Shown here piece by piece: positions 2,078-59,873 of a stretch of 64,000 nt of DNA (its first letter is position 1; every line of letters starts with the position of its first letter). Made by a program: the position numbers and the translations under genes. The notes beneath the pieces were generated by a model that did not search any database, had not been told where the DNA came from, and saw only the letters and a list, made by a program, of their open reading frames with translations. Location: the NCBI GenBank assembly GCA_963666285.1, contig OY762711.1, one strand, 5' to 3'. The DNA comes from Sedimentisphaerales bacterium (GTDB lineage: Bacteria; Planctomycetota; Phycisphaerae; Sedimentisphaerales; SM23-30).

Positions 2078-2150
2078 TATCCTATATTCCTTTCGAAATT
2101 ATCTCATCAATATTCAATCTCGCGTCAGCGACACAAACAACTTCTTACTT

Positions 2151-3350
2151 CTAACCTCTAACTTCTAACTTTTTGATCTCTTCATCTGTCAGATAACACG
2201 CAGGGTCCGGCTCCCACAAATCGCCGTACTTCGCTTCTGCTCTCACCCGGAAATTCCCGTTACACACATCCTGGAACCGGCATACTCCGCAGCGACCCTT
2301 CAAAAACTTCTTACGATCTTTCAGCTTCGCCATCAGTTCATCATTGGTATCGGTCCATATCTCCGAAAATTTACGCTCCCTCACATTGCCAAAAGTATAA
2401 TGTCGCCAGAACTGGTCCGCATGTACGCTGCCATCCCAGCTAACACAGCCAATACCGATACCGGTACTATTGCCGCCGTTCATCTTCAGCAGCTCCATTA
2501 CCTGCTCCGCCCGCTCGGTCTTACCTTCCGCCAGCAGCCGCAAATAAATATACGGACCGTCTGTATGGTTATCTACCGTCAGCACTTCCTTCTTCAAACC
2601 ACGATTATGCAAATCTTCTGTCCGGTCGATTATCAGGTCAACAACTTTGCGACTCTCCTCCAAGCTCAAGTCTTCCTCCATCAGCTCACTGCCGCGCCCG
2701 GCATAAACCAGGTGATAAAAACACACTCGCGGAACATCCTCCTGCTCCAGCAAATCAAATATACCCGGAACATCATGCACATTTCGCTTATTAATAGTAA
2801 ACCGTAAACCAACCTTTACACCCGCCGCCTTACAGTTTCGCATACCCGCCAACGCCTTATCATAAGCACCGGCTATCCCGCGAAACTTATCATTCGTTTC
2901 ACGCAGCCCGTCCAGGCTCACACCCACATAGCTCAAACCCAGTTCAGCAAACTGCTCGGCCTTCTCCGGCGTTATCAGTGTACCATTTGTTGAGATCACA
3001 GCACGCAATCCATTCGCCTTCGCCCTCTTTATCAGCTCCGGCAAATCCTTCCTCGTCAGCGGCTCACCGCCACTAAACAACACCACCGGCACACCAAACT
3101 CCGCCAGGTCATCCAAAAGCTTAAAACCCTCTTCGGTCGTCAGCTCATTCTCGTAATCCATATCATGCGAATGCGAATAGCAATGCACACACTTCAAATT
3201 ACAACGCCTCGTTGTATTCCAAACCACAACCGGCCGCTTATCCTTAGAAAACTGTAATAAATGGCTGGGCAGCTTGCCTGAATGGCGATTATACCTCAGT
3301 GGATCAGAGGCCTCAACGGTTCCGCAATATAATTTTGATATTCCAATCAT
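2151..3350 (-). CDS. radical SAM / SPASM-domain enzyme (AhbD/NirJ-like by N-terminal similarity from memory)
   Basis: CNLKCVHCY is a CxxxCxxC radical-SAM cluster motif. GGEPL is present. The C-terminus is Cys-rich (GRCGVCRFQDVCNGNF...PDPACY), typical of a SPASM auxiliary-cluster domain. The N-terminal ISKLYCG...LRY...LPSHLLQF string recalls heme-pathway AhbD/NirJ proteins. Confidence 0.75.
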   Translation of the reverse strand: MIGISKLYCGTVEASDPLRYNRHSGKLPSHLLQFSKDKRPVVVWNTTRRCNLKCVHCYSHSHDMDYENELTTEEGFKLLDDLAEFGVPVVLFSGGEPLTRKDLPELIKRAKANGLRAVISTNGTLITPEKAEQFAELGLSYVGVSLDGLRETNDKFRGIAGAYDKALAGMRNCKAAGVKVGLRFTINKRNVHDVPGIFDLLEQEDVPRVCFYHLVYAGRGSELMEEDLSLEESRKVVDLIIDRTEDLHNRGLKKEVLTVDNHTDGPYIYLRLLAEGKTERAEQVMELLKMNGGNSTGIGIGCVSWDGSVHADQFWRHYTFGNVRERKFSEIWTDTNDELMAKLKDRKKFLKGRCGVCRFQDVCNGNFRVRAEAKYGDLWEPDPACYLTDEEIKKLEVRG

Positions 3351-4556
3351 TGTTCTATCTTTCTGGTAACAATACTCTGATTTCTCATGGCTGGTTCTAA
3401 GTAAAGTATAGTATTATAGTAATAATTCCGCTCCGGGACTAATAATAAAACGAGCTTATCTCTATATTATTCATCCATTTGCATCATTTACCCCACTTTA
3501 ACATCTCAAATTTACTATACCTCAACAATGATCCGAAAAATCCCAATAATACAAAAGCCTGACCCTTGACTATTTCTCCAGCCGCGGCCGAACCTACGAC
3601 GGCCTGCTCTTTGTGAAAGATTAATAAATCCCAAGCCGCAACATACAAAAAAACACTATAATTACTCTAAAAACAAAATAATTATGATTACCTCAAGTGA
3701 AAATAGGTAAAATATCTCTGCTATTTTAATCTTTATCTGATAGCAAATTCTCTTATAAAATCTAATGATGTCTAACCTGTTCTGAAACCATTATTTATAT
3801 CATCTGCATGAAAATTTAACCGTTACATGTTTATCATCATTTGCAGATTTTGTCTCAATCGCTATAAGATATTTACAATTGTTTGTATGGGACAAATACA
3901 TTACCTGCGACTATTCTACCCAAACTGCTTACCCTGTATACACATATAATTCCTTGACAAAATCGGATAATAAAGTAAAATACTTTCTTGCTTCAAGAGT
4001 CGACTTTACTGGATGAAATTGATTTAATTTCTTTGTATTTCTTATTTTTATCGTTTTTGTACTACTATTAAATCTTATTGCGAATTAGTTGAGAATGTTT
4101 TTTGCAATTATCCTGGCAAAGTATGACGCGATAGAGTGATTTTATAAGGATCGGTTGAAAAGAGAATTAGACCAGGATCAAGCCTGGTCTTTAAGTCCCT
4201 GGAACGCAGGAGGCGAGGGTTTGTTTGCTTTTATCTTTCTAACTTATTCATATTAATATATGGATTATATAGGAATTTGTATTCCTGTCGTTTTTTAAAA
4301 TTGGAACCAATAGTAACATTTTTTGTAAGCATTCACAGGTGCGTTATTTGAGTCAGATTCTGTGTTTGCGGAGATTTAAAATAGTTCGCGATAAGCGAAC
4401 CTTAGCTTATTTCTTTTTACTTATATTTTATTACTGTAACCGTGTGAACGGTTACCATTTTTTTACTTGAAAGATAACCTCTTAACAGATGTTGCCTGAA
4501 TAAGTAAATTCATTTTTTAGTGTTTGAGAAGATTATCGTTTTATAGGAGTTTTCAT

Positions 4557-4817
4557 GTGGAGAAAACCAAGTATTACAATATTATTGAAGATTTTATAAT
4601 TGAGCAGTTTCTATTTGGCAGTAAAGAAGACCTTCAGAGAGATTTTTCTCTTTTGGAACAGGGAATTATTGATTCCATGGGTGTTCTGGAAATCGCCACT
4701 TACCTGGAAGATACCTTCAACATCATTATTCTCGATGATGAAGTTATACCCGAAAATCTAGACACAATAGATAATATATGTAGATTTTTGGAGACAAAGG
4801 TTAAATGTGCGGGATAG
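4557..4817 (+). CDS. acyl/aminoacyl carrier protein
   Basis: GIIDSMGVLEI contains the DSxG phosphopantetheine-attachment serine motif. The preferred start is GTG 4557, 5 nt after AGGAG (4547-4551), rather than the track's TTG 4524. The stop overlaps the next gene by 13 nt. Confidence 0.75.
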   Translation: MEKTKYYNIIEDFIIEQFLFGSKEDLQRDFSLLEQGIIDSMGVLEIATYLEDTFNIIILDDEVIPENLDTIDNICRFLETKVKCAG

Positions 4818-6772
4818 CTGGTATTTGCTGTATAAATTCTTCCGACCGGTTTGATGCTGATACAATATGCTCGATGCTGTCATCTATTCGCCATAGAGGA
4901 CCGGACGAATCAGGTATATACCTTGACAACCACGCTGCTCTGGGGCACTGCCGACTTAGCATTATTGACTTGGCCGGCGGCATCCAGCCGCTGTCCAACG
5001 AAAACGAAGACCTGTGGATAACCTATAATGGCGAGATTTTTAATTTCCCTGAATTAAAACGCTGCCTCGACAAGCATAATTTTAAAACCAGAACTGATAC
5101 TGAGGTACTCCTGCACCTTTTCGAAGACCATGGAATAGAATGTCTCGATATGCTTAACGGGCAGTTCGCCTTCGCTATCTGGAACAGCAGCAAAAAAGAA
5201 CTATTCCTGGCAAGAGATCGACTCGGAATCAGACCACTTTTTTATACTATTCAAGATAACAAAATAATTTTTGCTTCTGAAATTAAAGCTGTTTTCCAAT
5301 ATCCCAGGATCGACAGGGAACTCGACTGTATCGCACTCGATCAGATTTTCACATTCTGGACTACCCTGCCTGGCTATACAGCGTTTAAAGGTATCAGGGA
5401 ACTGCCGCCGGGCCATTACCTGCATCTTAAAAATGGTATTATCACAATTAAACAATACTGGCAAACTCCTTTATGTCGGGAAGACTCATCTGAATACTCT
5501 GATCTGAAGGAAGCATCAGAAAAGCTAAGCTGTTTAATCACCGACTCTATCAATATACGGCTGAGAGCTGATGTGCCGGTTGGCAGCTACCTCAGTGGAG
5601 GACTGGACTCTTCCGGAATAACCGCTAAAATCGTTAACAAATTTAATAACCGGTTAACTACTTTTGGCATCCGGTTTGACGATCCGGATTTCGACGAAAC
5701 GGCCTACCAGAAACATATGGTTAACCATCTCAAAACTAACCATACCGAACTGTTAGCATCAAACAATCTCATTGCGGATAACTTCGACAGGGTAATTTAC
5801 CATAGCGAAAAACCTATGACCAGAACCGCCCCCGCCCCGCTCTTCCTGCTGTCTAAAGTTGTTAGAGACTCAAACTACAAGGTGGTACTTACCGGAGAAG
5901 GGGCTGATGAATTTTTCGGCGGATATAATATATTTCGTGAGGCAAAGATAAGATACTTCTGCGCCCGCCAACCTGAGGCAACCTGGCGAACGGAGCTTTT
6001 TGGCCGCATCTATCCATATATCTTTAATAACCCAAGGATGAAAAAATCTTTACAGGCTTTTTTCACCAGGGGTATGCTCGATTTTGAAAACCCGTACTAT
6101 TCGCATTGCTTGCGATGGGCTAATACCTGCCGGATTAAATCTTTCTGGGATAAACCTTTTCAGAAATCCGTCGGACAATACGATGCTATCGGCGAACTTG
6201 ACAGCTTCTTACCTGGCGGTTTCGGTAAATGGGATATCCTTTCCAGGGCTCAATTCCTGGAAAGCAGCCTGTTCATGAGCAATTACCTGCTCTCCAGCCA
6301 GGGAGACCGGGTGGCTATGGCTCACTCACTGGAAATCCGGCTCCCATTCCTGGACTACAGACTCCTGGAGGCTCTTGCCGCTTTACCAAGACGATGGAAA
6401 ATCTCAGGCATAAAAGAAAAATTTATTCTTAGAAAAATTTTTGAAAACGATCTGCCCGCTGACATACTAAACCGCACCAAACAACCTTACAGGGCGCCCG
6501 TTATCAATGCCTTAACTGCCGATAGCAGCAGCTATTCTTCAAATATGGTCAGCGAAGATATGGTCAAAAAATCCGGCATATTTGACTATAACAAAGTATC
6601 GCTTCTGTTGAAAAAAATCAAAAACAATCGACAGCCATCTGAAATTGACAATATGGCCTTGTGCCTGATTGTGTCAACCCAGATGCTCATAGACCAGTTT
6701 ATTTGCAACCCGGTTAAAATTCCTGAACCTTATCAGGTCGATATGGTTATCGATAAAAGAAACAAAAACTGA
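4805..6772 (+). CDS. asparagine synthase-type glutamine amidotransferase (AsnB/WbpS-like)
   Basis: MCGIAG provides the N-terminal Cys nucleophile of class II glutaminases. YLSGGLDSS is a PP-loop. The protein is 655 aa. Confidence 0.85.
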   Translation: MCGIAGICCINSSDRFDADTICSMLSSIRHRGPDESGIYLDNHAALGHCRLSIIDLAGGIQPLSNENEDLWITYNGEIFNFPELKRCLDKHNFKTRTDTEVLLHLFEDHGIECLDMLNGQFAFAIWNSSKKELFLARDRLGIRPLFYTIQDNKIIFASEIKAVFQYPRIDRELDCIALDQIFTFWTTLPGYTAFKGIRELPPGHYLHLKNGIITIKQYWQTPLCREDSSEYSDLKEASEKLSCLITDSINIRLRADVPVGSYLSGGLDSSGITAKIVNKFNNRLTTFGIRFDDPDFDETAYQKHMVNHLKTNHTELLASNNLIADNFDRVIYHSEKPMTRTAPAPLFLLSKVVRDSNYKVVLTGEGADEFFGGYNIFREAKIRYFCARQPEATWRTELFGRIYPYIFNNPRMKKSLQAFFTRGMLDFENPYYSHCLRWANTCRIKSFWDKPFQKSVGQYDAIGELDSFLPGGFGKWDILSRAQFLESSLFMSNYLLSSQGDRVAMAHSLEIRLPFLDYRLLEALAALPRRWKISGIKEKFILRKIFENDLPADILNRTKQPYRAPVINALTADSSSYSSNMVSEDMVKKSGIFDYNKVSLLLKKIKNNRQPSEIDNMALCLIVSTQMLIDQFICNPVKIPEPYQVDMVIDKRNKN

Positions 6773-6797
6773 CAAGATAAATAATTATGGAATTAGT

Positions 6798-8375
6798 ATG
6801 TATGATAAATATCCAATATTAGTACATCAATGGCTCGAAAAAACTGCGTCAGAATTTCCCGACAAAACCGCACTGGTATGCGGTAAAGAAAGCATTACTT
6901 ACCGGGAACTTAATGAAAAATCTGATAATATGGCCGCAGCACTCAGACTTAATGGAATCTCTCATCAGGACAGGGTGGTTATTTTTCTCGAAAATTCTAT
7001 CGAAACAGTTATATCTCTTTACGCTGTTGCAAAGGCCGGCGCCATCTTTGTTATTGTTAACGAACAGCTCAAGGCTGCCAAGCTGGCCTATATCATCAAT
7101 AACTCACAGGCGAAATTCCTGGTCTCTTCCGGCCCCAAAATCAAGACCGTCTCTCTCGCTGTAAATGAATGCCACGGCAAACCAAAACTTATTTTCACCC
7201 GGATAAATAAGAAAGTAACCGATCAGTTCAACGATAGCCTGGCATTCGAAGAACTTACATCATCCAAACCTGATACCGCCGGAATTTCTACTGTTGTCGA
7301 AATCATTGATCAGGATCTGGCCGCTCTTATCTACACCTCCGGGTCAACTGGTGAACCAAAAGGAGTTATGTCTTCTCATCTCAATATGATTTCAGCGGCA
7401 CGAAGCATCATTCAATATACCAAACAATGCTCCGGCGATATCATCCTGAACGTATTGCCGCTGTCTTTTGACTATGGACTGTACCAGGTGATTATGAGTG
7501 TTATGTTTGGCGGCACTGTTATTCTTGAAAAATCTTTTGCCTACTTCCACCAGGTACTGTTAAAAATCAGTGAATATAAAGTCACCGGTTTCCCCATTGT
7601 GCCTACTATTGTTGCTATGATGCTAAATTTGCAGGATCTTTCCAAATACGACTTCTCCTCTCTTCGTTTTATTACCAATACCGGTGCCGCACTGCCGGTC
7701 GAACATATCAGGCGGTTCAGAAAACTCTTTCCCCGCTTGGAAATATACTCGATGTACGGCCTGACTGAATGCAAGCGGGTCAGCTATCTTCCTGTAGAAC
7801 AAATTGATATCAGACCAGATTCCGTCGGAATAGCTATGCCCAACTGCAGGGTTCTTATCGTTGACAACGATGGCAAACCGGTGAATACCGGTGAGATCGG
7901 CGAACTCATTATACAAGGTTCCAATGTTATGCCCGGCTACTGGCAGGATCCGCAACTATCAGCTAAAGTATATAAAACCGGTTACCTCAACCTGCGATAT
8001 CTCTATTCCGGAGATTTCTTCAAACAGGATAAAGATGGATATCTCTATTTCCTCGGGAGAAAAGATGATATGATAAAGACCAGGGGAGAACGAGTCAGCC
8101 CAAAGGAAATTGAAAATATTATCAGCCAATACCCGGGTGTCGCTGAAGTCGCTGTGATTGGCATACCAGAACCGATTATGAGCCAGGTTCCCAAAGCGTT
8201 TATCGTTAAAGCAAATGGATATAATCTAAACACAGATGATATACTCAAATATTCTATCGAAAATATGGAAAGGTTCATGGTGCCTGGAGCCGTTGAATTC
8301 ATAGACGCTTTACCTAAAACACCAAATGGTAAAATTGACAAAAACAAGCTTAAAGAGCAGGAACTACAAATATGA
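6798..8375 (+). CDS. AMP-forming adenylating enzyme (acyl-CoA/acyl-carrier-protein ligase family)
   Basis: ANL-superfamily core motifs are present: YTSGSTGEPKGV, YGLTE, GDFFKQDKDGYLYFLGRKDDMIKTRGERV and PKTPNGKIDK. Confidence 0.85.
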   Translation: MYDKYPILVHQWLEKTASEFPDKTALVCGKESITYRELNEKSDNMAAALRLNGISHQDRVVIFLENSIETVISLYAVAKAGAIFVIVNEQLKAAKLAYIINNSQAKFLVSSGPKIKTVSLAVNECHGKPKLIFTRINKKVTDQFNDSLAFEELTSSKPDTAGISTVVEIIDQDLAALIYTSGSTGEPKGVMSSHLNMISAARSIIQYTKQCSGDIILNVLPLSFDYGLYQVIMSVMFGGTVILEKSFAYFHQVLLKISEYKVTGFPIVPTIVAMMLNLQDLSKYDFSSLRFITNTGAALPVEHIRRFRKLFPRLEIYSMYGLTECKRVSYLPVEQIDIRPDSVGIAMPNCRVLIVDNDGKPVNTGEIGELIIQGSNVMPGYWQDPQLSAKVYKTGYLNLRYLYSGDFFKQDKDGYLYFLGRKDDMIKTRGERVSPKEIENIISQYPGVAEVAVIGIPEPIMSQVPKAFIVKANGYNLNTDDILKYSIENMERFMVPGAVEFIDALPKTPNGKIDKNKLKEQELQI

Positions 8376-9370
8376 CAAATCAAAAACCATTTAGCCCGGA
8401 CGTACTGAATATTGATTATGACCGGGAAGTTGAAAAAATCTCGGAGTATATTCGTCATTCTCTTCAGAAAGTCTTAAAGAGAAAAGGGATCGTTCTAGGC
8501 GTATCCGGTGGTATTGACAGTAGTACAACCGCGGCACTTTGTGTAAATGCTATTGGAAAGGAACGGGTATTCGGCATACTTATGCCCGAACAGGATTCAG
8601 CCGAGGAGTCCGAACAGTTCGGCAAACTGCTATGCTGCCATTTAGGAATTAAATGGTCCGAAGAAATTATCACTCCTATGTTGGAAGCTTTCGGTTGCTA
8701 CAAACGCAGAAATGATGCCATTAGAAAAGTTATCCCGGAATTCGGTAATAATTGGAAATGCAAAATCACTCTGCCCAGCGTCCTGGAAAAAGGGGCCGCT
8801 TACCGAATCTTCTCGATTGTTGTCCAGTCTCCCGACGGAAAAGAAATCAAAACCAGGCTTAACCAGGAAGCATATCTTGGAATAGTAGCGGCTACTAATT
8901 TCAAACAGAGAACACGAAAAATTATGGAATACTATAACGCTGACAGGCTTCATTATGCTGTCGCCGGAACTCCAAACCGCCTCGAATATGATCAGGGATT
9001 CTTCGTTAAAAACGGCGATGGGGCTGCTGATATCAAACCTATCGCTCACCTTTACAAAACTCAGGTTTATAAGCTCGCCGAACATCTGGGGCTGCCTCAG
9101 GAAATTGTCAAACGACCACCCACCACCGATACTTATTCGCTGCCGCAGTCTCAGGAAGAATTTTTCTTCTCGCTGCCATACGATAAAATGGACCTCTGTT
9201 TGTATGGAAAAAATAACGGGTATTCGCCACAGCAGATAGCACCTGTCGTTGAGCTCTCCGCACAACAGGTACAGTGGGTATTTGATGACATTGACCAGAA
9301 GCGAAAAACCACCAGGTATCTGCAGCTGCCGCCTTTAGTAGTTGAAAAGGTAACTGAAATTGCTGAATAA
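8372..9370 (+). CDS. NAD synthetase-like PP-loop ATP pyrophosphatase
   Basis: GVSGGIDSS is an SGGxDS PP-loop. An ATGA start/stop overlap with the ligase gene indicates translational coupling. Confidence 0.7.
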   Translation: MTNQKPFSPDVLNIDYDREVEKISEYIRHSLQKVLKRKGIVLGVSGGIDSSTTAALCVNAIGKERVFGILMPEQDSAEESEQFGKLLCCHLGIKWSEEIITPMLEAFGCYKRRNDAIRKVIPEFGNNWKCKITLPSVLEKGAAYRIFSIVVQSPDGKEIKTRLNQEAYLGIVAATNFKQRTRKIMEYYNADRLHYAVAGTPNRLEYDQGFFVKNGDGAADIKPIAHLYKTQVYKLAEHLGLPQEIVKRPPTTDTYSLPQSQEEFFFSLPYDKMDLCLYGKNNGYSPQQIAPVVELSAQQVQWVFDDIDQKRKTTRYLQLPPLVVEKVTEIAE

Positions 9371-9478
9371 TAAATTTCTGAAATTCTTCGATAATTGATA
9401 TAATAGATTTTATCGAGGGGTGCAATCTTATTGACATTTATAGTTCTAGATGCGTAAACTTCTATAGATAATACAGAT

Positions 9479-10039
9479 ATGTTAGTTCTTATCAAAAAAA
9501 TATTAAAAAAAACTTTTCACCCGACCATACTGCGCATTACCTTCTCCAATTTCATTATAAACCTGCTGCCTGATATTGAAATATGCTCGTATTTACGGGT
9601 CTGTATCGCGCGACTCCTGGGACTGACAGCCGGTTCTAATACTTCCATTAGAAAAACTGTTTACCTGGGAAACCTCAAGAATATTAAGATGGGGGCAAAA
9701 GTCAAAATAAACAGGGATGTCTTCTTTGATGCCTTCGATAAAATTACAATTGGTTCCAATGTAGGAATTGCTTTCCAGGTTTCATTTGTTACCAGCACAC
9801 ATGAAATCGGCGAAACTAAAGCTAGAGTTGGCAACATTGTCGGTAAACCTATCACTATTGAAGATGGTTGTTGGATCGGGGCTAGAGCTATTATCGGACC
9901 AGGTGTAACAATTGGCAAAAGCAGCGTAATAGCAGCCGGAGCGGTTGTTCTGCGATCAATGCCGTCAAACTCTGTTATCGCCGGCAACCCGGCCAGGGTC
10001 ATCAACCGAATAACAAACAACAACACCATCGAAGCTTAA
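9479..10039 (+). CDS. hexapeptide-repeat (left-handed beta-helix) acyl/acetyltransferase
   Basis: Imperfect hexapeptide repeats are present (IGSNVGIAFQVSF, IEDGCWIGARAIIGPGVTIGKSSVIAAGAVV). The size is typical of WcaF/LacA-like O-acetyltransferases. Confidence 0.75.
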   Translation: MLVLIKKILKKTFHPTILRITFSNFIINLLPDIEICSYLRVCIARLLGLTAGSNTSIRKTVYLGNLKNIKMGAKVKINRDVFFDAFDKITIGSNVGIAFQVSFVTSTHEIGETKARVGNIVGKPITIEDGCWIGARAIIGPGVTIGKSSVIAAGAVVLRSMPSNSVIAGNPARVINRITNNNTIEA

Positions 10040-14587: not shown

Positions 14588-14729
14588 AACTTACATTATA
14601 CGCATACCGCCCGCCCCCGCAACTAAATTCATCCTCCACCCTCAACCTGAGTTTTCTCGCTCTGTCCCCCTCTCACTTTCACCTCTTACCTCTCACTTCT
14701 CACTTCTCTCTTTTCACTTCTCCCGCACC

Positions 14730-15081
14730 AGCTTTAAAACAAGTCGTCCTTGCCAGCGAATTATTCCTGATGTCAACGTACATCAGGACACCTTAATTTT
14801 TCATTTTTCACTATTCATTTTTCATTTAATTGCGGCCTCTGCGAGAGACAAATCTTATCAAAATCACTCTGCTTAATATCTTCCAATCTCCATCCAAACC
14901 AACATCGTTAAGGGCATAGTAGCTCAGGCATCCCTGCCTGACAATAAACCAGCCCTCGCACAAGCGACAACCTCCTTTTCTTTTTTCATTTAGCGAAGCT
15001 TGCCTTCTTCCTCCTCGCTTATCTCTCCTAACTTTTCAACCTCAATTTCACATTTTTTTTTCATCCTTCATCCTTCATCCT
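14730..15081 (-). repeat. repeat copy A, distal part (paralogue of 19780-19921)
   Basis: Read on the minus strand it begins AGGATGAAGGATGAAGGATGAAAAAAAAATGTGAAATTGAGGTTGAAAAGTTAGGAGAG, matching the + strand at 19781-19840. It shares ...CTTGTTTTAAAGCT at the far end. An A-specific insertion of ~150 nt is present. Confidence 0.8.
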
Positions 15082-15800
15082 GTCGAGTAGGCATGTCGCC
15101 TCCTTTCATTAATTTAACAAATTCTGAGTTTCATTATATTTTGTGCAAGGAAACGCATGCCCCTCACAGAACCGGACTTGAAGATTTCCCTCATCCGGCT
15201 CTTCATTAATGCTCACTTTGACGGCTACATAAGGCAAAGTAATGTGCCTTGTAGAAGTCTCCGATAGAAGACGCTGTGGAACGTTCATGGTTTCTTCCAG
15301 TTCAGTGCCTGGCCAATATCCTGTTTCGCCTTTACACATTAATGCTGACCCCTTCGAGTGCCTCAAACTTCGAAACTCAACAGGCATTACCCTGTTTACT
15401 CCTCTACTATGAGTCAGTCCGACTACCAAAATGCCATACGGCCGCGTCACGGTTTCAGCTCCTTGGCCGCTTCCTTTCGGAGCACTTCGGTTCTCCCAAG
15501 TTCCAATGCAGTCAGTTCGTTTGCCCGCTACGGACTCAGACCCCGGCTCGTCGATATATGCTCGCCGTATTTCGCATATATCGATATTGGCTTCAGGCAT
15601 ATGAAAACCCTGGCCCGGATGCGATAAGGAATAATTTCGGGGCTCAACACCTTCACTTGCGTTGTGGCTGACAAACTCCTTTCCCGGGGCTTCGTACAGT
15701 TCGTTACCTCTCTGCACGCCCGGTGCTGTAATGGGCGGGTGGCTAGCCCTTACCCATGCCGGATTGGCCGGCTTGACTACATTAGCTTCGCTTGGCGCTC
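15082..15800 (-). mobile_element. ORF-less group II intron, copy 1 (in non-coding DNA)
   Basis: The 5' end is GAGCGCC. Domain V is GAGCCGGAUGAGGGAAAUCUUCAAGUCCGGUUC (15201..15169). The domain VI helix GAGGGGCAUG/CAUGCCU-A-CUC has a bulged A 7 nt from the 3' end, and the 3' end is ...CGAC. It is absent from the paralogous site at 19776/19777. It differs from copy 2 by 2 substitutions. Confidence 0.8.
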
Positions 15801-16064
15801 TCATACCTCATCCTTCAGGTGCCGTTTCACGGCACCTGTCTGGTCTGCCCACAAATTACCAATCTCAATTTCCAGGTTAACAAACGCCTTTTAATCTTTA
15901 TTTCATACCCCCTTCCGCGCCCTCTCCGCGCTCGTTCTCAGCCCGCCGTAAGCCTCCGCGCGGCCTCCGTTGCCCGCAATTGCCCGGCGTTTAACGCCGT
16001 AAAATCGACTTTGGTACCACCAAACCCAAAATCAGCCAAAATATTTCAACTTCTTGCACACAAT
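15801..16064 (-). repeat. repeat copy A, proximal part (inverted partner of 19516-19779)
   Basis: About 264 bp are nearly identical (~4 mismatches) to the reverse complement of 19516-19779. It contains the hairpin CAGGTGCCG-TGAAA-CGGCACCTG and a GC-rich core. Confidence 0.9.
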
Positions 16065-16527
16065 CTAACCCAAACAGATTAATATATGAACCGCCTCAGG
16101 CAAGATACCAAGACACAAAAATAAACAAACCAGAAGAGATACTCACAGATAAGGAACACCCAAAATTCTCGTCAGAAAATTTCGGTTAGAAATTTGAAGT
16201 CTAAAAAACAGATGGCATAATATGGCATAATATAGAAATAGATGATGGTTAAGTAGTCGCAACCTGAGAGGAAGTATGATGGTTAAGTAGTCGCGTAATC
16301 TGGGGAAGGTATATGGAAGCAGGCTCAATATCGAGTAAATGGATAGTGGATTTGATATCAGGTAAAAGATGGTAGTAAAAGTAGTTACAGTCTCAAACTG
16401 GAAATAGAAGCAGTTGTAATATCAGGATGGATCACGGCATAGCGAAGTCTATTTAGGGCTGTTTAGAGTCAGGCATATTTGATAATATTTTACCTTAACA
16501 TATTATACAGCAATATATTAAGATCGA

Positions 16528-18088: not shown

Positions 18089-19249
18089 TTAACCGATATC
18101 GCGTTTTCTGAACAGCATAATAGCTATAGTTAGAGCGCCTAGCGTATATGCCATGGTATAGACAGCGGTCCTGACTATATATTTACTTCTCATACTGCGT
18201 TTTTGCAGCTCTTTTTCTTGTTTTTCGGCTGAAAGTTCATGAAGTGGTTTCGGCTCATCGTAAACACCATCGGTAACAACATAAAGATTTATCGACGGTA
18301 TAACTGCCAGTCCGCCCCAGGCACAGGTTGTAGGTAAAATCTGCTTAGGCTTTTCTGTAAAATACTTTACGTAATCGCCCAACGAGACATCGACAGATAA
18401 TTTACTGTCGTCAGTGGTCGGATCAGCCTGTTTGAGGGCAGCTGTTTTTTGCTCGGTTATCTCCTTATATGGCTTCATTGCGACTGGTCCGAGCTTGTAG
18501 TGGACCATTGTGCCAAGCAGAAAAGCGACGGCACAAATTATCAGGGTAGTTACCATATTGAACCGCATGGCAGCGGTAACCGAGATTGAGCAGAACATAA
18601 TCGAGGCCAGCATAACAAGTATGACCGGACCGATGAGGTGGGCTTTGAACTGGTTGTTGGCCGGGTTGTATTTCCAGTCTCGGTCGATAAAGCATAAGAT
18701 CAATATTGACAAGGAGTAAAGGATAGTCGAAAGAAATACCGTCGAGCTGCCAAACCGCCATTTATAGAAATAGTTGCCAAGCGCAGCCAGGGCAATGGCA
18801 ATAAACGAGGAGGCGAAGCTGAAGGTTATAACTGTATAGTCCGGCTCGTCAGAGGCTGACTCGAGCACGCCATGGCGGACAGTCATAAAGTATACCAGGA
18901 TAAGGAGATATTGTGCCAGCAGCACGGCACCGGTTACGCCGAGGAATTTGCCGAGTACGAATGCCGGTCGACTGACGGTCTTGGAGATAACGGTGAGCGC
19001 TGTCTTTCGGTCGATTTCGTCGGTAACGACGGTAGAGGCAGAGAAAACGGCGATGAACAGCCCGGCGACCAGCAGGTTAGATAAACCTATATCCCACATG
19101 AGTTTATTGTCTTCACGGATAGTGAACATTACCAGTGAAGGCGTGAACAGGAAAATGATCTGGGTTGCCAGGATGATAACGATATATATCGGCTGCCGCA
19201 GAGCTTCTGTAAATGTATTTTTACAAACGACTAATGTGTTTTTGATCAT
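18089..19249 (-). CDS. ABC-2/NosY-like multi-pass membrane permease
   Basis: The N-terminus FTEALRQPIYIVIIL...DEIDRKTALTVISKTVSRPAFVLGKFLG is typical of ABC-2 type permeases. There are at least 6 hydrophobic segments. No ATPase partner is in the window. Confidence 0.55.
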   Translation of the reverse strand: MIKNTLVVCKNTFTEALRQPIYIVIILATQIIFLFTPSLVMFTIREDNKLMWDIGLSNLLVAGLFIAVFSASTVVTDEIDRKTALTVISKTVSRPAFVLGKFLGVTGAVLLAQYLLILVYFMTVRHGVLESASDEPDYTVITFSFASSFIAIALAALGNYFYKWRFGSSTVFLSTILYSLSILILCFIDRDWKYNPANNQFKAHLIGPVILVMLASIMFCSISVTAAMRFNMVTTLIICAVAFLLGTMVHYKLGPVAMKPYKEITEQKTAALKQADPTTDDSKLSVDVSLGDYVKYFTEKPKQILPTTCAWGGLAVIPSINLYVVTDGVYDEPKPLHELSAEKQEKELQKRSMRSKYIVRTAVYTMAYTLGALTIAIMLFRKRDIG

Positions 19250-19258
19250 TGTTTATCA

Positions 19259-19314
19259 GGTATTTGATATTAGGTATTAGGTATTAGGTATTAGGTATTA
19301 GGTATTAGGTATTA
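19259..19314 (+). repeat. tandem heptamer array (GGTATTA)x8, 6 perfect units
   Basis: Seen directly: GGTATTT GATATTA followed by 6 x GGTATTA. The array ends 10 nt from the permease start codon and is followed by GGGGCGGTATCGCC, the anchor motif on the opposite strand. Confidence 0.95.
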
Positions 19315-19515
19315 GGGGCGGTATCGCCTATCGGCAAGACTAATCTGATATAGCCCCGCAAACTAATTATATTAGTACGCTTTTATGTATCGGTACGCTG
19401 CTAAAATTAAATCCAATTTGGGGTCAGAATGTGCCCGTGGCAGAATATATATCTTCTGACTGAGATTATACGATGGGTGGCCGGGTTGGTTCTGTATTAA
19501 TTAGAATGGAGTAAA

Positions 19516-19921
19516 ATTGTGTGCAAGAAGTTGAAATATTTTGGCTGATTTTGGATTTGGTGGTACCAAAGTCGATTTTACGGCGTTAAACGCCGGGCAA
19601 TTGCGGGCAACGGAGGCCGCGCGGAGGCTTACGGCGGGCTGAGAACGAGCGCGGAGGGGGCGCGGAAGGGGGTATGAAATAAAGATTAAAAGGCGTTTGT
19701 TAACCTGGAAATTGAGATTGGAAATTTGTGGGCAGACCAGACAGGTGCCGTGAAACGGCACCTAAAGGATGAGGTATGAAGGATGAAGGATGAAGGATGA
19801 AAAAAAAATGTGAAATTGAGGTTGAAAAGTTAGGAGAGAGAAGCTTCGCTAGATGAAAAATGAATAATAGAAGTGAAGAATTGAGGTGTTCGCCTGGCGG
19901 CTCACGGCTTGTTTTAAAGCT
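19516..19921 (+). repeat. repeat copy B, the uninterrupted paralogue ('empty site') of copy A
   Basis: It reads the GC-rich core, then the hairpin AGGTGCCGTGAAACGGCACCT, then AAAGGATGAGGTATGA-AGGATGAAGGATGAAGGATGAAAAAAAAATG without the 719-nt insertion. Confidence 0.9.
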
Positions 19922-20195
19922 AACGCGTAGGTAAAGTTCAATCAAAATGCGGCACCTGAAGTATGAGAAGAGTTAGGTTTCGTATTTCGATCAGGACATG
20001 AGTAACGGTTTACCTATCTTGACTCTATTTTCATCTTTATCGATCTGAATATTATTTCAGTTATCACTCCACAGAAACCTCCCATAAAAGCTGAATTGAA
20101 CAATAAAAAAAATAGAAAGGCGATGGAATTGTGTTTCATACTGTCATATGGTATAAACCAAGCAAGCGGATAGTTAAAAATAGAAAATCCTATTT

Positions 20196-20699: not shown

Positions 20700-22247
20700 C
20701 TATTTAATCTCTTCCATTTTTTCGATCTTGAAAAATGACTGTGTTACTTTATAGGCATCAAGCGGGTTGCCATCTATGACAGTAGAAGTAATATAAGCAG
20801 GACATTGGCTCTGGTGCGGCCTGGTAGCATCGATTGTATACCAATTATCATTTATCCATACCTGGGTCCAGGCATGGCCGTAAAAGGCATTCTTAACCGT
20901 AGCAAACTCGTCGACATAGAAATAACCAATCGCTACCCTGGCCGGTATCCCTGCAGACAGGCACATTCCCGCAGTTAAAACCGCATGCTCGGTGCAGTCA
21001 CCAGATTTGTTTTTAGCTATATCGAGAGCAGAAGCCCAACCTGTGCTGAGATTTTTATTGTTAATATATCCATGCACAAAGGCTTCGATTTTTTTAGCTG
21101 CTTTCCACGCATCTCTTTCATCTCCTACAGCTTCCAAGGAAAGTTTCCTGATGGCCGGATCATTATATTTGAGCCAGATATTATTAGGATTGAAACATTT
21201 TTCGGCCTGCAGATATTTATGCAAGGATGCATGAGTGTTATCATTAGATTTTTTAAATGCAAGTGATGGATCAATTTCAAAAATATCTGTCGGCAGCTGC
21301 TGACTGACCGGCGGCTGATAGGGCCTGACCTCAATGGTACATTCGTCATTTAATTGTTTGGCAATTACCTGATGATCGTCCTGATAGAAATCAACATCAG
21401 CTTTAGCAAATTTCAAATGGTAACGCATAGCTTTGGCCCTGGTCGGGTCTGGTGAATCAGCAGGGGCTTTGATCGAAACATCGGCGAGGATCTCAGCGAC
21501 ACCTTCATTGGCAAGAGCTTCTTCCATTTCGGCGACGATAAACTGGAACTTCAACCCCATCATTTCGATCGAAGATATCACATCATTACCATCTTCATCA
21601 ATATAGGAGACAGTCTCGATAGCTGTTCCTTTGAGGGTAAGAATAGTAGTACATTTGTACAGCGATTCATCGTAACCGGGCAGGTTAGTCTTATCACCGA
21701 TCACAACCTTGTAATCGACTTCCGACATATCGCCAGGCGAAAAAGCTGTGCCGGTAACGGTAACACCCGGAACAATACCATCCTTCATTGCTTCCTGCAT
21801 GAGCAGTTCTGCTGGCTGGACCTTGTCAGATATTTCCATCTCAAACTTGTTAGTACTGCCACTGATAGCCTGAAGAATATCATACTTGCCCTGCAGGTTG
21901 AGACTGCCATCAACCTTAACTACCGCCGGACCAAACTCCATAGATGAATTGAAACCGCTGAGTTTATATTTAGAAGCCTGGCTGTCCCATTTGAACTCGG
22001 TAGCTTCGGATACTGCTGCGGTAATCTTTGCACCGGCCCGACCGATATTGAGTTTGACGAATTCGCGAGACTTGACAAACTCCGGTGAAGTTTCGCTTAC
22101 GTGATGAATATAGCCGGCTTTCTGGTCGTTGAGCATAACCTTAAACCATTGATCGGCAGTTTCTTCCGGCAGCTGTTCAACAGCAGCAACCGCAGTTGCA
22201 AACATAACCAATATTAGAGATGATAATAATTTTTGTCGAGTAGGCAT
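20700..22247 (-). CDS. secreted transglutaminase-like cysteine protease-fold protein. Coordinates use the intron-internal ATG; the spliced form would be join(22957..22954,22234..20700).
   Basis: The Cys-His-Asp transglutaminase core is present (SGDCTEHAVLTAGMC...GHAWTQVW...IDAT). The N-terminal signal peptide is either MPTRQKLLSSLILVMFATAVAAV (unspliced) or MKKLLSSLILVMFATAVAAV (spliced). Confidence 0.8.
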   Translation of the reverse strand: MPTRQKLLSSLILVMFATAVAAVEQLPEETADQWFKVMLNDQKAGYIHHVSETSPEFVKSREFVKLNIGRAGAKITAAVSEATEFKWDSQASKYKLSGFNSSMEFGPAVVKVDGSLNLQGKYDILQAISGSTNKFEMEISDKVQPAELLMQEAMKDGIVPGVTVTGTAFSPGDMSEVDYKVVIGDKTNLPGYDESLYKCTTILTLKGTAIETVSYIDEDGNDVISSIEMMGLKFQFIVAEMEEALANEGVAEILADVSIKAPADSPDPTRAKAMRYHLKFAKADVDFYQDDHQVIAKQLNDECTIEVRPYQPPVSQQLPTDIFEIDPSLAFKKSNDNTHASLHKYLQAEKCFNPNNIWLKYNDPAIRKLSLEAVGDERDAWKAAKKIEAFVHGYINNKNLSTGWASALDIAKNKSGDCTEHAVLTAGMCLSAGIPARVAIGYFYVDEFATVKNAFYGHAWTQVWINDNWYTIDATRPHQSQCPAYITSTVIDGNPLDAYKVTQSFFKIEKMEEIK

Positions 22248-22953
22248 GTCGCCTCCTTTCATTAATTTAACAAATTCTGAGTTTCATTATATTTTGTGCA
22301 AGGAAACGCATGCCCCTCACTGAACCGGACTTGAAGATTTCCCTCATCCGGCTCTTCATTAATGCTCACTTTGACGGCTACATAAGGCAAAGTAATGTGC
22401 CTTGTAGAAGTCTCCGATAGAAGACGCTGTGGAACGTTCATGGTTTCTTCCAGTTCAGTGCCTGGCCAATATCCTGTTTCGCCTTTACACATTAATGCTG
22501 ACCCCTTCGAGTGCCTCAAACTTCGAAACTCAACAGGCATTACCCTGTTTACTCCTCTACTATGAGTCAGTCCGACTACCAAAATGCCATACGGCCGCGT
22601 CACGGTTTCAGCTCCTTGGCCGCTTCCTTTCGGAGCACTTCGGTTCTCCCAAGTTCCAATGCAGTCAGTTCGTTTGCCCGCTACGGACTCAGACCCCGGC
22701 TCGTCGATAGATGCTCGCCGTATTTCGCATATATCGATATTGGCTTCAGGCATATGAAAACCCTGGCCCGGATGCGATAAGGAATAATTTCGGGGCTCAA
22801 CACCTTCACTTGCGTTGTGGCTGACAAACTCCTTTCCCGGGGCTTCGTACAGTTCGTTACCTCTCTGCACGCCCGGTGCTGTAATGGGCGGGTGGCTAGC
22901 CCTTACCCATGCCGGATTGGCCGGCTTGACTACATTAGCTTCGCTTGGCGCTC
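22235..22953 (-). mobile_element. ORF-less group II intron, copy 2 (inside codon 2 of the transglutaminase-like gene)
   Basis: The same 719-nt element as 15082-15800, with domain V at 22354..22322. Both copies share the 5' exon flank TATGA and the first 3' exon base A. Confidence 0.8.
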
Positions 22954-49362: not shown

Positions 49363-49540
49363 CTACCTATAATATACCACAGTGGTTGTGTCAATGCAAC
49401 CATAAAAGCAAAAAATATTTTCCCCATTCGTGCATATTCGTGTTAATTCGTGGTTAAATAAAGACTTACACTGCAAAACTTTTTCGTAAAATTTCGTGGC
49501 TTCTGTTTCTTAACCACGGATGAACGCAGATTCACACTGA

Positions 49541-50912: not shown

Positions 50913-51069
50913 ATCTTAATTATTCTCAAGTTCTTATGAGTTTTCAACGCATTTATCCTTGAGTTTTCTTGATTTTTCTTGATGTTTACGTTTGACACAT
51001 TCCGATAAGGGTGTTAATATTCACTCAAGATTACTCAAGATTTCTTGATAATTAAATATAGAGATCAAT
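50913..51069. promoter_or_regulatory. divergent switch region with phased TCTTGA/TCAAGA operator-like repeats
   Basis: TCCTTGAG, TTCTTGAT and TTCTTGAT start at 50956, 50966 and 50976 (10-bp phase). ACTCAAGA x2 is at 51023-30 and 51033-40, followed by an inverted TTTCTTGAT at 51041-49. Confidence 0.6.
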
Positions 51070-51450: not shown

Positions 51451-51956
51451 CGGCTGAGTAAAAAACACCAGGCAGCGTCACCTGCCTGGCATAAATATAA
51501 CCGGGCACGGATAGCCCGCAAAAATAATTACGGAAGGACTTGTTATGACCGCAAAAAACTTAAAACGCATCGGCATCGCCGAAACCATAACTCTTCACTC
51601 TTCACTCTTAGTTCTTCACCCAGCAAGGTTTCATCCTTCATAATTCATAATTCATTCGAATCTGCCTCCCCCGGTTCTTGCCGGAACGATTTAAAGCAGG
51701 CAGGGCAACTGGCGAGCTTGCCACATCCGTTCGCCACATATAGTAACTAACTTTGACAAGTAAATATAGACAGGTTCCAGTAGCCAGGTTTCAGGTTCCA
51801 GTGAAGACATAAAATCAGCTTCGCCGAAGGCGAGACCTTCCCTAACACCTAATACCCAATACCTAACACCTGTTAAATCGACCTCCTTTTTCAAAGCGGC
51901 GAGCTCAACGCACTCGCCGGTAAACGTGGGGCCGGGGCGGCAGGGACGCTGCTCAA

Positions 51957-52412: not shown

Positions 52413-52600
52413 CTGCCTGCCAGTAACCTTATGACGATCAAATTAAGATGAGCGATAGCGACAACCGGCCCTTATGCCTTATCCCTTATCCCTCATCCCT
52501 GAATTCATTAACCATGTTACTATTGTTAAACATTAAGTATAAGCCGCTGTCGGCGGCGTAGCCGACAGCTTTTTTCAAAAACACTAAACCACAGATAAAC

Positions 52601-55283: not shown

Positions 55284-55381
55284 CGGAGATAAAATGAGCC
55301 ATCAGCGAAATATCAAATCAGCCCCGCCCCAGGCGGCACCTTCCCTGATGCCTTATCCCTTATCCCTTATCCCTGTATAAC

Positions 55382-59797: not shown

Positions 59798-59873
59798 ATC
59801 CGTGGTTCAAAGATTAAATTATTCGTGTCTATTTGTGTCCATCCGTGGTTCAAACAGACAAGGAGTAAATGAA

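Follow-up and report, generated by a model that had tools for sequence, protein, structure and literature searches.

Heptamers are reported to be the commonest class of long simple sequence repeats (SSRs) in bacteria and are explained by polymerase slippage (Mrazek 2007). The STRR sequences of cyanobacteria are tandem repeats of 7 bp, dispersed over many intergenic sites, for which a part in translation or in the stability of transcripts has been suggested. TAACTGA repeats are found in marine Beggiatoaceae, Cyanobacteria and Bacteroidetes as intergenic arrays of 2 to 6 or more units (MacGregor 2015, PMC4679880). These arrays are mostly in forward orientation a few nucleotides from a start codon, and a ribosome-binding site is usually absent. 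They are predicted to be unstructured and are distributed patchily across phyla, and a translational role via S1, Csp or CsrA was proposed (PMC4679880). In Haemophilus influenzae, the 5′ UTR of hmw1A and hmw2A carries G-free (ATCTTTC)n, whose unit number sets expression and whose slippage is the basis of phase variation (PMC12721329). The hmw repeats pair with a G-rich partner into a long hairpin, of which they make up one arm and which RNase III cuts (PMC12721329).

The window, a 64-kb stretch of DNA of a Sedimentisphaerales-like planctomycete with a Mu-like prophage, harbors 12–15 imperfect tandem heptamer arrays, where about 0.05 would be expected. At a strict threshold the count of period-7 arrays was 12, block shuffles yielded 0.05, and for other periods the count was 0–2. 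The arrays have 2.7–9 units each and occur in the host chromosome and the prophage alike. Nearly all contain 0–3 G on one strand, and many are about 43% C and 0% G. They are intergenic, save overlaps of a few codons at 2139–2171 and 51590–51611. The first-pass annotation had described them as non-coding, of period 7, G-poor and common to host and prophage, and all four properties are borne out. Every array that it listed was located by TRF and sequence reading at, or a few bases off, the position given, the weakest being nt 60020–60053 (4.9 units, 77% matches in TRF). TRF delimits four others at 14796–14827, 52469–52500, 55342–55374 and 60900–60930. Two arrays lie beyond its list, at 2139–2171 (AACTTCT, 4.7 units) and 19765–19801 (AAGGATG, 5.3 units).

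At least five unrelated unit families are present within the window; CCTAAYA recurs at three sites, CCCTTAT at two, and TTCATCC/TTCATAA/TTCATTT at five. RNA folds predict that the arrays are unpaired and that the GC-rich elements beside them ("anchors") form small hairpins. Rfam, searched over the whole window at gathering thresholds, returned group II intron models only. In repeat structure, dispersal and unit variation the arrays agree with the bacterial heptanucleotide long SSR or STRR-like class. They are members of this known, widespread and fast-evolving class and not a new kind of element.

Comparison with the individual systems shows where the window arrays differ. The forward, start-abutting arrangement without a ribosome-binding site, typical of TAACTGA, is found at the ABC-2 permease (ATG 19249) and at MuA (ATG 55382). 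However, the TAACTGA system has one dominant unit per genome, whereas the window has at least five families; TAACTGA itself does not occur as a unit, and the closest is TTAACTA/TTAGTTA at 60020–60058. The TAACTGA system also has no described hairpin and was not reported in Planctomycetota or prophages. The hmw repeats are likewise G-free heptamers beside an RNA hairpin element, but they form a single locus of at least 11 units, while the window has a dispersed family of 3–9 units with no G-rich same-strand partner in any of the leaders inspected. STRR sensu stricto differs in its units (STRR1–3), in its heterocystous cyanobacterial hosts, where the window has a Phycisphaerae-type planctomycete, and in having no described anchor. 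The first-pass annotation knew of no description of the anchor-plus-array module, and this is half right: sense-strand G-poor heptamers before start codons are already represented by TAACTGA (PMC4679880) and by the hmw ATCTTTC repeats (PMC12721329). For the hairpin anchor no description was found in the literature, and a search with the anchor sequence gave primers only.

Related arrays are widespread. Among the matches listed for three CCTAAYA units, more than 120 species of many phyla are represented, with Symploca, Caldora, Trichodesmium and Chamaesiphon rich in such arrays. These listed loci contain 262 period-7 arrays against at most 21 for any other period; 73% are strongly G-poor, and dozens of unit families occur in them.

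In the host DNA, the first cassette (2120–2171, plus strand) comprises the hairpin TCGC-GTCA-GCGA (2120–2131) and the AACTTCT array (2139–2171). It is located between convergent gene 3′ ends, and the array overlaps the last codons and stop of a radical-SAM ORF; its counterpart in the related genome L001 also lies at gene 3′ ends. The CTCACTT/TCTCACT-type array on the plus strand (14671–14726; TRF 14671–14722, 7.6 units) has no adjoining hairpin and lies 84 nt upstream of the start codon of a glycosyltransferase gene. It is followed by a plus-strand cassette (14729–14827) with the box AGCTTTAAAACAAG, the 9-bp hairpin TCCTGATGT-CAACGT-ACATCAGGA (14765–14788), CACC and 4.6 units of TTCATTT (14793–14827). 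Both arrays of 14671–14827 are on the strand antisense to the glycosyltransferase gene. On the minus strand, the hairpin GGCG-ATAC-CGCC (19317–19328), CC and nine units of CCTAATA (19254–19316) form the cassette 19254–19328. Also on the minus strand, 19885–19930 holds the box AGCTTTAAAACAAG, a GA-type anchor GTGAGCCGCCAGGCGAACACC (19885–19905) and a pyrimidine-rich, partly periodic tract; its box and array tail are common to the 14729–14827 cassette.

All prophage cassettes are on the plus strand. The cassette 51570–51657 contains TTAAAAC, the hairpin TCGGC-ATC-GCCGA (51570–51582) and AACCATA, then ACTCTTC units (51590–51618) and TTCATCC/TTCATAA units (51630–51657). TRF reports 2.9 units at 51590–51609, to which degenerate units are added, and a second stretch at 51637–51655; the part 51590–51611 overlaps a mini-ORF of 22 codons. 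At 51821–51871, the hairpin TCGCC-GAA-GGCGA (51821–51833) and GACCTTC precede 4.4 units of CCTAACA (51841–51871). The CCCTTAT arrays are preceded by a GA-type anchor, ATGAGCGATAGCGACAACC (52448–52466), in 52448–52503 (4.6 units, 52469–52503), and by the hairpin CCGCC-CCA-GGCGG (55324–55336) with CACCTT in 55324–55377 (4.7 units, 55343–55377). Two further GA-type anchors are GTGAGCGATAGCGAACACC (60001–60019), followed by 4.9 units of the TTAACTA/TTAGTTA type (60020–60058; cassette 60001–60058), and GTGAGCGGAGCGAACACC (60879–60896), followed by GC and 4.4 units of CCTAACA (60899–60935; cassette 60879–60935).

Part of the host region is duplicated. Nt 14960–16069 and 19511–19910 are the arms of a 98% inverted repeat, and therefore the anchors and arrays of both arms are copies and not independent cases. 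The left arm (14956–15081, plus strand) carries the hairpin TCGC-ACAA-GCGA with CAACC (14956–14972), a pyrimidine-rich tract with GCGAAGC (14993–14999) and 3.1 units of TTCATCC (15060–15081). The right arm carries the TCATCCT array uninterrupted (minus strand, 19765–19801, 5.3 units) in the long leader of an ABC-2/S41 operon. Units at 15061–15081 and 15801–15814 had been noted, and both are present; they are one array, not two, split by an ORF-less group II intron of 719 nt (15082–15800, minus strand; Rfam RF02005 and RF00029), with the last two TCATCCT units on its far side (15801–15814, plus strand). Removal of the intron in silico restores the left-arm array exactly as in the right arm. The group II intron thus sits inside a heptamer array, splits the cassette and is not a part of it.

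The association between hairpins and arrays was examined beyond the window. Of 18 arrays of this lineage, 10 have a GC hairpin within 14 nt on their upstream side, to which two GA-type anchors can be added, and 4 have one on their downstream side; the background is 6.7%. The explicit hairpin search revealed no such association around 232 arrays from other phyla, and in the samples examined the link is seen in this lineage alone. In an energy-based folding comparison the upstream and downstream sides of arrays were alike. The difference between the two sides emerged in the explicit search, unlike the energy comparison, and in this lineage alone. A test of unit-decay polarity was biased by window choice and is given little weight.

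The first-pass annotation had proposed an anchor-plus-array module. Its anchor strings are present in the sequence, and a GC-rich element 5′ of arrays does hold for this lineage, but neither one common anchor sequence nor a general module does. The anchors are several different small hairpins, and one subtype only carries GAGCG..AGCGAAC. The motif GCGAMMACC occurs eight times in the window against 1.46 expected, a count reached in 0 of 100 shuffles, and five of the eight copies abut an array or pyrimidine tract. Across the window and L001, 17 cassettes keep one order of parts: A/T-rich box, hairpin, ACC and array. Boxes, flanks and arrays of such cassettes are homologous while the hairpins are swapped.

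An intrinsic terminator, read on the complementary strand, would be a GC-rich stem with a T run directly after it. The scan gave two weak terminator-like matches, at 51833–51821 and 51827–51815; in this reading the window cassettes have a T-rich box 3–6 nt past the stem, and a canonical form (7-bp stem and T8) is found only in the L001 cassette at 6186–6247. A frameshift signal composed of the TTTAAAAC box and hairpin, a lac-operator likeness of GTGAGCGG and a CRISPR-repeat likeness of the anchor complement were each rejected on inspection.

The distances from arrays to start codons reported earlier hold. From array to start codon there are about 4 nt at the ABC-2 permease (ATG 19249), about 4–7 nt at MuA (ATG 55382), about 20 nt at the 60956 gene and about 41 nt at gam (60100). 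Array 19254–19316 leaves no room for a Shine-Dalgarno (SD) sequence before the permease ATG, and array 55343–55377 reaches the MuA transposase ATG without an SD. The spacing is looser (20–86 nt) at gam, the 60956 gene and the 51957 gene, where array 51841–51871 lies 86 nt upstream; all three have an SD. The arrays at 2139, 14671 and 14796 are not start-proximal in forward orientation, and both cassettes of the genome L279 are antisense to the operon. In viral contigs, arrays of the CTCACTT/TTCACTC type precede genes in the purine-rich orientation. Of the 17 host genes examined in the window, 1 is preceded by an SD-like motif, as are 21 of 50 genes in relatives.

Comparison between genomes indicates how quickly the arrays change. 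The ABC-2 leader of the window has GGCG-ATAC-CGCC and 8–9 CCTAATA units; that of L001, whose CLC protein is 93% identical, has CGCC-GTCA-GGCG and about three degenerate units; and that of L277 has TCGCC-GAA-GGCGA-AACCTTC and four units of CCTACTG. Unit number therefore differs between genomes. The 51821 hairpin with ACCTTC recurs before the CCTACTG array of L277. Arrays are absent from the more distant relatives L278 and L280 and from MuA relatives at 44–50% identity: none was found upstream of MuA in one IMG/VR phage (44% MuA identity) or in nine metagenome phages (44–50%). The arrays are thus dispensable. Taken together, these sequences show that an array can quickly gain units, lose them or adopt another unit while its site stays the same.

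The arrays are also shared between loci. The 52469 and 55343 arrays are 94% identical over 33 nt. Cassette 60879–60935 matches the host array 19254–19328 both at the start (ACCGCCCC) and at the end, 60888 corresponding to 19254; the 51590 array block is common to the L001 host leader and viral contigs, and an 18-nt block of the 2139 array is found at a non-orthologous L001 site. A 19-mer from the CCCTTAT array had no viral match. The same imperfect array blocks thus recur at unlinked loci and in unrelated phages. From the fast turnover and the identical arrays at unlinked loci, host against prophage included, it follows that arrays spread by slipped-strand mispairing together with recombination or conversion.

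The explanation that we favor, with middling confidence, is that these are slippage-generated cassettes in which a hairpin is joined to a structure-free, G-free mRNA leader whose function we infer. In order, the hairpin is short, GC-rich and of several sequence types; next come a few bases, in most cases including ACC; and the array has practically no G on the hairpin strand. A stable same-strand hairpin may stall replication and so fix the end of the array, after which slippage would act; fixing of the end by the hairpin would therefore give a sharp hairpin-proximal boundary and one-sided polarity. The sense transcript would have a 5′ or intercistronic hairpin and then a G-free stretch up to the start codon, which could neither fold nor carry an SD. 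The sense orientation is that of most prophage cases, the ABC-2 permease and MuA. With fewer than half of the genes in the lineage having an SD, the stretch might serve as an open landing pad, and initiation independent of SD could proceed via OB-fold proteins (S1 or cold-shock domains, site size of about 7 nt). Unit number would then tune expression, as measured for (ATCTTTC)n at hmw1A. The TMV omega leader and T7 epsilon UUAACUUUA are unstructured, G-poor enhancers bound by S1, with initiation that does not need SD pairing. The 60020 array (TTAACTATTAAC) resembles T7 epsilon, but omega and epsilon are single evolved leaders and not slippage-prone array families as here. Counted against slippage-generated cassettes are the non-uniform orientation, the purine-rich viral arrays, the SD at gam and the 60956 gene, the absence in distant relatives and the null result of the energy-based folding test.

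The arrays could instead be neutral slippage debris with 7 nt as a favored unit, tolerated in intergenic DNA, the strand bias reflecting purifying selection against leaders that are G-rich, form structure or mimic an SD, and not a positive function. Fast turnover of copy number and unit, the absence from distant relatives and related Mu-like phages, the diversity of unit sequences, the positions at gene 3′ ends and in antisense, and the slippage explanation reported for the commonest long SSR class (Mrazek 2007) would all suit such an origin. Yet among the listed CCTAAYA loci, 40 of 98 have the start of an ORF (80 aa or more) no farther than 90 nt downstream on the G-poor strand, and 14 of 98 have one on the other strand, a sense to antisense bias of 40:14 near start codons. 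Arrays also replace the whole SD region of two genes, function has an experimental precedent in hmw, and pure local slippage does not predict imperfect array blocks at unlinked loci and in unrelated phages. We consider neutral debris rather unlikely.

The GA-type anchor deserves separate consideration. Its consensus is GTGAGCG-N(N)-AGCGAAC-ACC, that is N2 N1 GA GC (GNA/GNNA) GC GA N1′ N2′ (DNA/RNA form, GTGAGCGAAGCGAACACC), and the loop is GNA or GNNA with any N among anchor copies. The two outer pairs covary, being Watson-Crick in 31 of 38 and 26 of 38 copies, which 0 of 2000 shuffles reach. On this covariation, the anchor is a predicted mini-hairpin. GCGNAGC and GCGNNAGC are extraordinarily stable DNA mini-hairpins (Hirao; reviewed in PMC13037366). 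The microviruses G4, St-1 and alpha3 have such hairpins at their primase-dependent origins, and phage N4 has them in its hairpin promoters (PMC13037366). In the core, a sheared G.A closes the GNA or GNNA loop on two G-C pairs. Their exact core is found inside the GA-type anchor, at 52452, 60005 and 60883; the core alone is not enriched in the window. Beyond what these mini-hairpins have, the anchor possesses a conserved tandem G.A step, an ACC tail and two Watson-Crick pairs that covary. Viral contigs are enriched in it at least 24-fold; several Microviridae records have it in their large non-coding region, and it is also found in dsDNA phages and a bacterial chromosome. About 8% of the viral copies carry an array, and therefore anchor and array are not an obligate module. 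Four anchor-bearing viral loci had no Rfam match at E ≤ 1, and a megablast search of annotated phages with the viral context that most often bears the anchor gave no match. Tentatively, and with a doubtful prospect of being right in full, the GA-type anchor might be an undescribed, widespread structured element of Microviridae, T4-like and other phages and bacterial chromosomes; its hairpin would be formable on one strand only and could seed repeats on its 3′ side, for example by a replication stall or at an Okazaki-fragment junction, giving 5′-leader cassettes exchangeable between host and prophage here.

A further proposal makes the A/T-rich box (TAAAAY, TATAAT), hairpin, ACC and array a mobile regulatory cassette, a portable promoter or processing site with a 5′ UTR that would be moved by host-phage recombination. 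The promoter-early stem-loop (PeSL) cassettes of T4-type phages would be a parallel. The single part order of the 17 cassettes and the homologous boxes and arrays with exchanged hairpins would be expected of such a cassette, and the anchor begins 6 nt after TATAAT in Aeromonas phage AP1 and 5 nt after TATAAT at 60879. However, none of the anchors was assigned a promoter in the sigma-70 consensus scan of both array regions, C is the last base in half of the −10-like boxes, and a consistent −35 element is absent. In viral contigs the anchor is sense to ORFs in 13 cases and antisense in 15; this absence of an orientation bias weakens both the promoter reading and the ops reading considered below. 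A mobile promoter or processing cassette is accordingly improbable in our estimate.

Control of elongation would assign two tasks: the GA-type anchor would be an ops-like recruiter of a NusG paralog and the C-rich arrays would be Rho (rut) sites, so that leaders are ended unless the factor is loaded. The ops/JUMPStart element is a small non-template-strand hairpin with the core GCGGTAGCG, found in leaders of horizontally acquired operons without SD. This same mini-hairpin makes up the core of the anchor, GCG-N(N)-AGCG, and the L001 copy is exactly GAGCGGTAGCGAG; RfaH targets are also SD-less and in leaders. Rut sites are C-rich, G-poor and unstructured, and many arrays, as noted, have about 43% C and no G. 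The 12-nt ops consensus GGCGGTAGnnTG is nevertheless not matched: the flipped-out loop bases read by RfaH, conserved in ops, vary freely here (GNA/GNNA), the downstream bases are AAC and not TG, and the pause positions T11 and G12 are absent. Moreover, the arrays are short (20–63 nt), several are A/T-rich rather than C-rich, the phage anchors have no orientation bias relative to genes, and the 64-kb window encodes no specialised NusG paralog. We regard this mechanism as very unlikely.

The annotation had also likened the arrays to telomeric repeats and to CsrA sites. Support for the telomere likeness is lacking, as GGG runs occur only in the complement of CCCTTAT. The CsrA reading fails because the GGA motifs, carried by AAGGATG, are on the strand antisense to the downstream genes of the ABC-2 operon; no GGA is found on either strand of the other array types, and GGA motifs on the mRNA strand near an SD, which characterize CsrA sites and often lie in hairpin loops, were not found. 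Thus, even though the AAGGATG units contain GGA and the CCCTTAT complement has four GGG runs, it is most improbable that the arrays are sites of one sequence-specific regulator (CsrA on GGA, or a phage repressor on iterons) or telomere-like or G-quadruplex DNA, since the unrelated unit families, at least five in the window and dozens elsewhere, do not all suit any one sequence-specific binder, only one family has G runs, and the arrays are spread over chromosome, phage and many phyla.

Heptamer arrays before bacterial genes have been known for 35 years, as STRR and TAACTGA, without agreement on how they arise or what they do. Only hmw has been dissected, and it demonstrates that arrays can set expression and need RNA structure. 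With the same imperfect array blocks and anchor present in the host, the prophage and unrelated phages, it may be asked by what route elements this short travel. The GA-type anchor, with its covariation, its viral over-representation of at least 24-fold and no Rfam match, may merit a study of its own. In many phyla the arrays lack G on the mRNA strand, which points to the inability to fold as the property that may be selected, and their physical tie to hairpins with fixed polarity in this lineage offers a handle on how arrays are seeded.

The heptamer arrays that the first-pass annotation listed in intergenic DNA of the host chromosome and the prophage were all recovered by TRF, which adds two more at 2139–2171 and 19765–19801. 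Our own period scan finds 12 period-7 arrays in the window against 0.05 in block shuffles at the same threshold, and 0–2 arrays for each other period from 4 to 12. The arrays are G-poor as described, nearly all containing 0–3 G on the strand with fewer G. The proposed anchor motif, searched as GCGAMMACC, occurs 8 times in the window versus 1.46 expected, and five of the eight occurrences adjoin an array or a pyrimidine tract.

Heptamer repeats like those of the window form a known and widespread class. A search for three CCTAAYA units, with one genome per species, returned at least 120 matches where about two are expected by chance (our estimate); those listed include Cyanobacteria, Bacteroidota, Chloroflexota, Acidobacteriota, Armatimonadota, Planctomycetia and others. 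The 820 kb around the listed matches contain 262 period-7 arrays, against at most 21 for any other period. Their unit sequences number in the dozens, some being the same as in the window (TTCATAA, CCTACCA, CCCAACA), and in 73% of the arrays G makes up under 8% of one strand. Of 98 arrays in this sample, 40 are followed within 90 nt by the start of an ORF of 80 aa or more on the G-poor strand, and 14 on the opposite strand. Published accounts match the arrays of the window and of other phyla. TAACTGA repeats are 'forward' and predicted to be unstructured; they often stand 1 nt away from the start codon and mostly lack a ribosome-binding site (PMC4679880). STRR heptamers are described in cyanobacteria, and heptamers are reportedly the commonest long simple sequence repeats in bacteria (Mrazek 2007). 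The length of the G-free (ATCTTTC)n in the Haemophilus hmw1A 5′ UTR sets the expression level, acting jointly with an RNA hairpin (PMC12721329).

The window (G+C 44.9%) carries in its left part chromosomal genes for a radical SAM enzyme, asparagine synthase, a CLC channel, glycosyltransferases, an ABC-2 permease and S41 peptidase pair, and a transglutaminase-like protein. The nearest named homologues of the CLC protein come from Sedimentisphaerales/Phycisphaerae MAGs; judging by these names, the host is a Phycisphaerae-type planctomycete. The Mu-like prophage runs from about 28 kb to the window end, with MuA at 55382–57376, MuB at 57366–58526 and Gam at 60100–60603. A stretch of 1.4 kb (3351–4804) upstream of the asparagine-synthase cluster lacks any ORF of at least 80 aa and includes a period-14 (2 × 7) repeat at 4406–4435. 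In L001, a relative's locus, the gene block 4805–10039 was not found in the interval from the radical SAM gene to the CLC gene.

The TCATCCT pieces at 15061–15081 and 15801–15814 are present as reported, but they form one interrupted array, not two. A 719-nt ORF-less group II intron (15082–15800, minus strand; RF02005 and RF00029 in Rfam) splits it between 15081 and 15801, and in-silico removal of 15082–15800 yields a base-for-base copy of the uninterrupted array 19765–19801. The latter is the second copy of the split array, because both lie in arms (14960–16069 and 19511–19910) of a 98% inverted repeat bracketing the ABC-2 permease and S41 peptidase genes. The repeat is about 340–400 bp long, intron not counted, and both arms have anchors and arrays; these anchors and arrays are therefore duplicates and not independent cases. 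Its outer ends have diverged, with the order of parts kept. A near-identical 719-nt intron at 22235–22953 (minus strand; RF02005 and RF00029) lies directly after ATGA of the transglutaminase-like start codon; both copies lack a reverse-transcriptase ORF, and the 5′ exons of both end in TATGA. Predicted splicing of the second copy gives the transglutaminase-like gene (20700–22262) the start ATG AAA AAA TTA... and a clean signal peptide, MKKLLSSLILVMFATAVAA.

The arrays of this lineage are built into cassettes. On the G-poor strand an A/T-rich box (TAAAAY, TCAAAT or TATAAT) is followed after 3–6 nt by a small GC-rich hairpin, (A)ACC and the array, an order found 17 times in the window and L001, with hairpins that vary in sequence and length. 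A perfect stem (4 bp or longer, 3 or more G-C pairs), ending within 14 nt of the array, lies upstream of 10 of the 18 arrays in the lineage set and downstream of 4, against a background of 6.7%; two GA-type anchors missed by the stem criterion come on top of the upstream ten. The anchor-array link claimed earlier thus stands in the lineage set but not around 232 arrays of other phyla, where hairpins lie upstream of 11 and downstream of 17 (background 10.8%). It is therefore seen only in the lineage set, and is not a general property of heptamer arrays.

Shared sequence shows that the cassettes are related to one another. Arrays 52469 and 55343 have 33 nt in common at 94% identity, including the odd GCCTTAT unit, with differing hairpins. 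The array start (ACCGCCCC) and array end are common to 60888–60935 and 19254–19328, and the box AGCTTTAAAACAAG and array tail to 19885–19930 and 14729–14827. The prophage segment 51590–51618 has 23 nt in common with the L001 host leader. An imperfect array block, TCACTCTTAGTTCTTCAC, with its odd TTAGTTC unit, is common to the prophage (51590–51618), the relative's chromosomal leader (L001 18890–18930, minus strand) and 16 viral contigs (L261–L276) in at least 3 distinct contexts, where about 2 viral matches are expected by chance (our estimate). In the viral contigs it apparently takes the purine-rich orientation, just upstream of a Shine-Dalgarno (SD) motif and ATG. Period-10/11 direct repeats (CTTGATTTTT three times, ACTCAAGATT twice) sit close to the divergent early region at the prophage end, and TTATTCGTG-type repeats occur both in the prophage and in the host leader of L001. 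The sites of both (window 50958–50987, 51023–51042, 49436–49457 and 59820–59847; L001 19134–19163) may be operators or protein-binding repeats.

The GA-type anchor is a distinct hairpin of 17–18 nt with a wide distribution. GTGAGCG-N1-2-AGCGAACACC has at least 123 matches in viral contigs (L125–L244), with 45 distinct contexts among the matches listed; a control with the same bases in reverse order has 5. Examples are L254 1501–1519 and L255 3501–3524. With the pattern relaxed to GAGCG-N1-2-AGCGA and the seeded variant left out, the two flanking positions are Watson-Crick in 31 and 26 of 38 distinct instances (shuffle means 13.5 and 11.0), counts that none of 2000 shuffles reaches. In the architecture, N2 N1 G A G C [G N(N) A] G C G A N1′ N2′, a tandem G.A step and two Watson-Crick pairs extend the mini-hairpin core GCGNAGC/GCGNNAGC (PMC13037366). 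Four anchor-bearing viral loci gave no Rfam match at E ≤ 1, and the anchor sequence was not found in the literature search. The sites are intergenic and unannotated, in Microviridae, in T4-like phages of Aeromonas and enterobacteria and in others, with several copies per genome in T4-like Aeromonas phages. In Aeromonas phage AP1 the anchor begins 6 nt after TATAAT, and in one microvirus three 9-nt repeats follow it. Within 64 nt of the anchor, 5 of 66 viral contexts have a short-period tandem array on the 3′ side and 1 of 66 on the 5′ side, against 0.57% of random windows; the association is real but a minority one. Orientation relative to ORFs in viral contigs has no bias (13 against 15). A longer relative, TGTCAT-CCTGAGCG-N(N)-AGCGAAGG-ATCT, has a 5-bp Watson-Crick extension (CCT..AGG). 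Its recurrence in loci of several different genomes (L004 5597, L098 48, L114 4339, L120 2811, L080 3430) looks like that of a dispersed repeat family.

The arrays are quickly changing, slippage-type repeats. Before the ATG of the ABC-2 permease the window has the hairpin GGCG-ATAC-CGCC, then CC and 8–9 CCTAATA units. L001 (CLC protein 93% identical) has CGCC-GTCA-GGCG and about three degenerate units in the same place, and a further relative, L277, has TCGCC-GAA-GGCGA-AACCTTC and four CCTACTG units before ATG. L278 and L280 have neither hairpin nor array, and the two cassettes of L279 are oriented the other way. The permease itself (18089–19249, minus strand) has 386 aa versus 320–336 aa in listed homologues, and is only 64% identical to its L001 orthologue despite 93% for the nearby CLC channel. 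Other 22-kb samples of relatives hold 0–2 arrays each. No array precedes MuA in ten Mu-like relatives (44–50% MuA identity), in which MuA abuts or overlaps the upstream neighbour gene. By these comparisons the arrays are fast-evolving and dispensable.

Arrays are G-free on one strand, and in the lineage set they begin beside the hairpin on that same strand. Predicted RNA folds leave the arrays single-stranded and the anchors paired. At two genes the array fills the entire space where an SD would lie. Of 17 host genes in the window only 1 is preceded by an SD-like motif, and of 50 genes in relatives 21 are. Sense transcription of a cassette would give a hairpin and then an unfoldable leader, which could support SD-independent initiation and whose length might tune expression; the hairpin could stall synthesis on its template and so fix one array end. 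We regard this leader function as evenly balanced between right and wrong. A uniform function is opposed by cassettes that are antisense or at gene 3′ ends (2139, 14671, 14796, L279, L001 6216), by the SD that genes downstream of prophage arrays have of their own, and by more distant relatives without arrays. That the arrays are neutral debris is rather unlikely. A promoter or processing cassette, an ops-plus-rut element and the site of a specific binder all rank below both leader function and debris.

The first-pass annotation knew of no description of such modules. Heptamer arrays have been described before, but the hairpin-anchored architecture, its sharing between host and phage, and the generalisation 'G-free on the mRNA strand' were not found in the literature searched. 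The window arrays extend a known kind of repeat to a new phylum and to a prophage, and the anchor hairpin may itself be a new motif.
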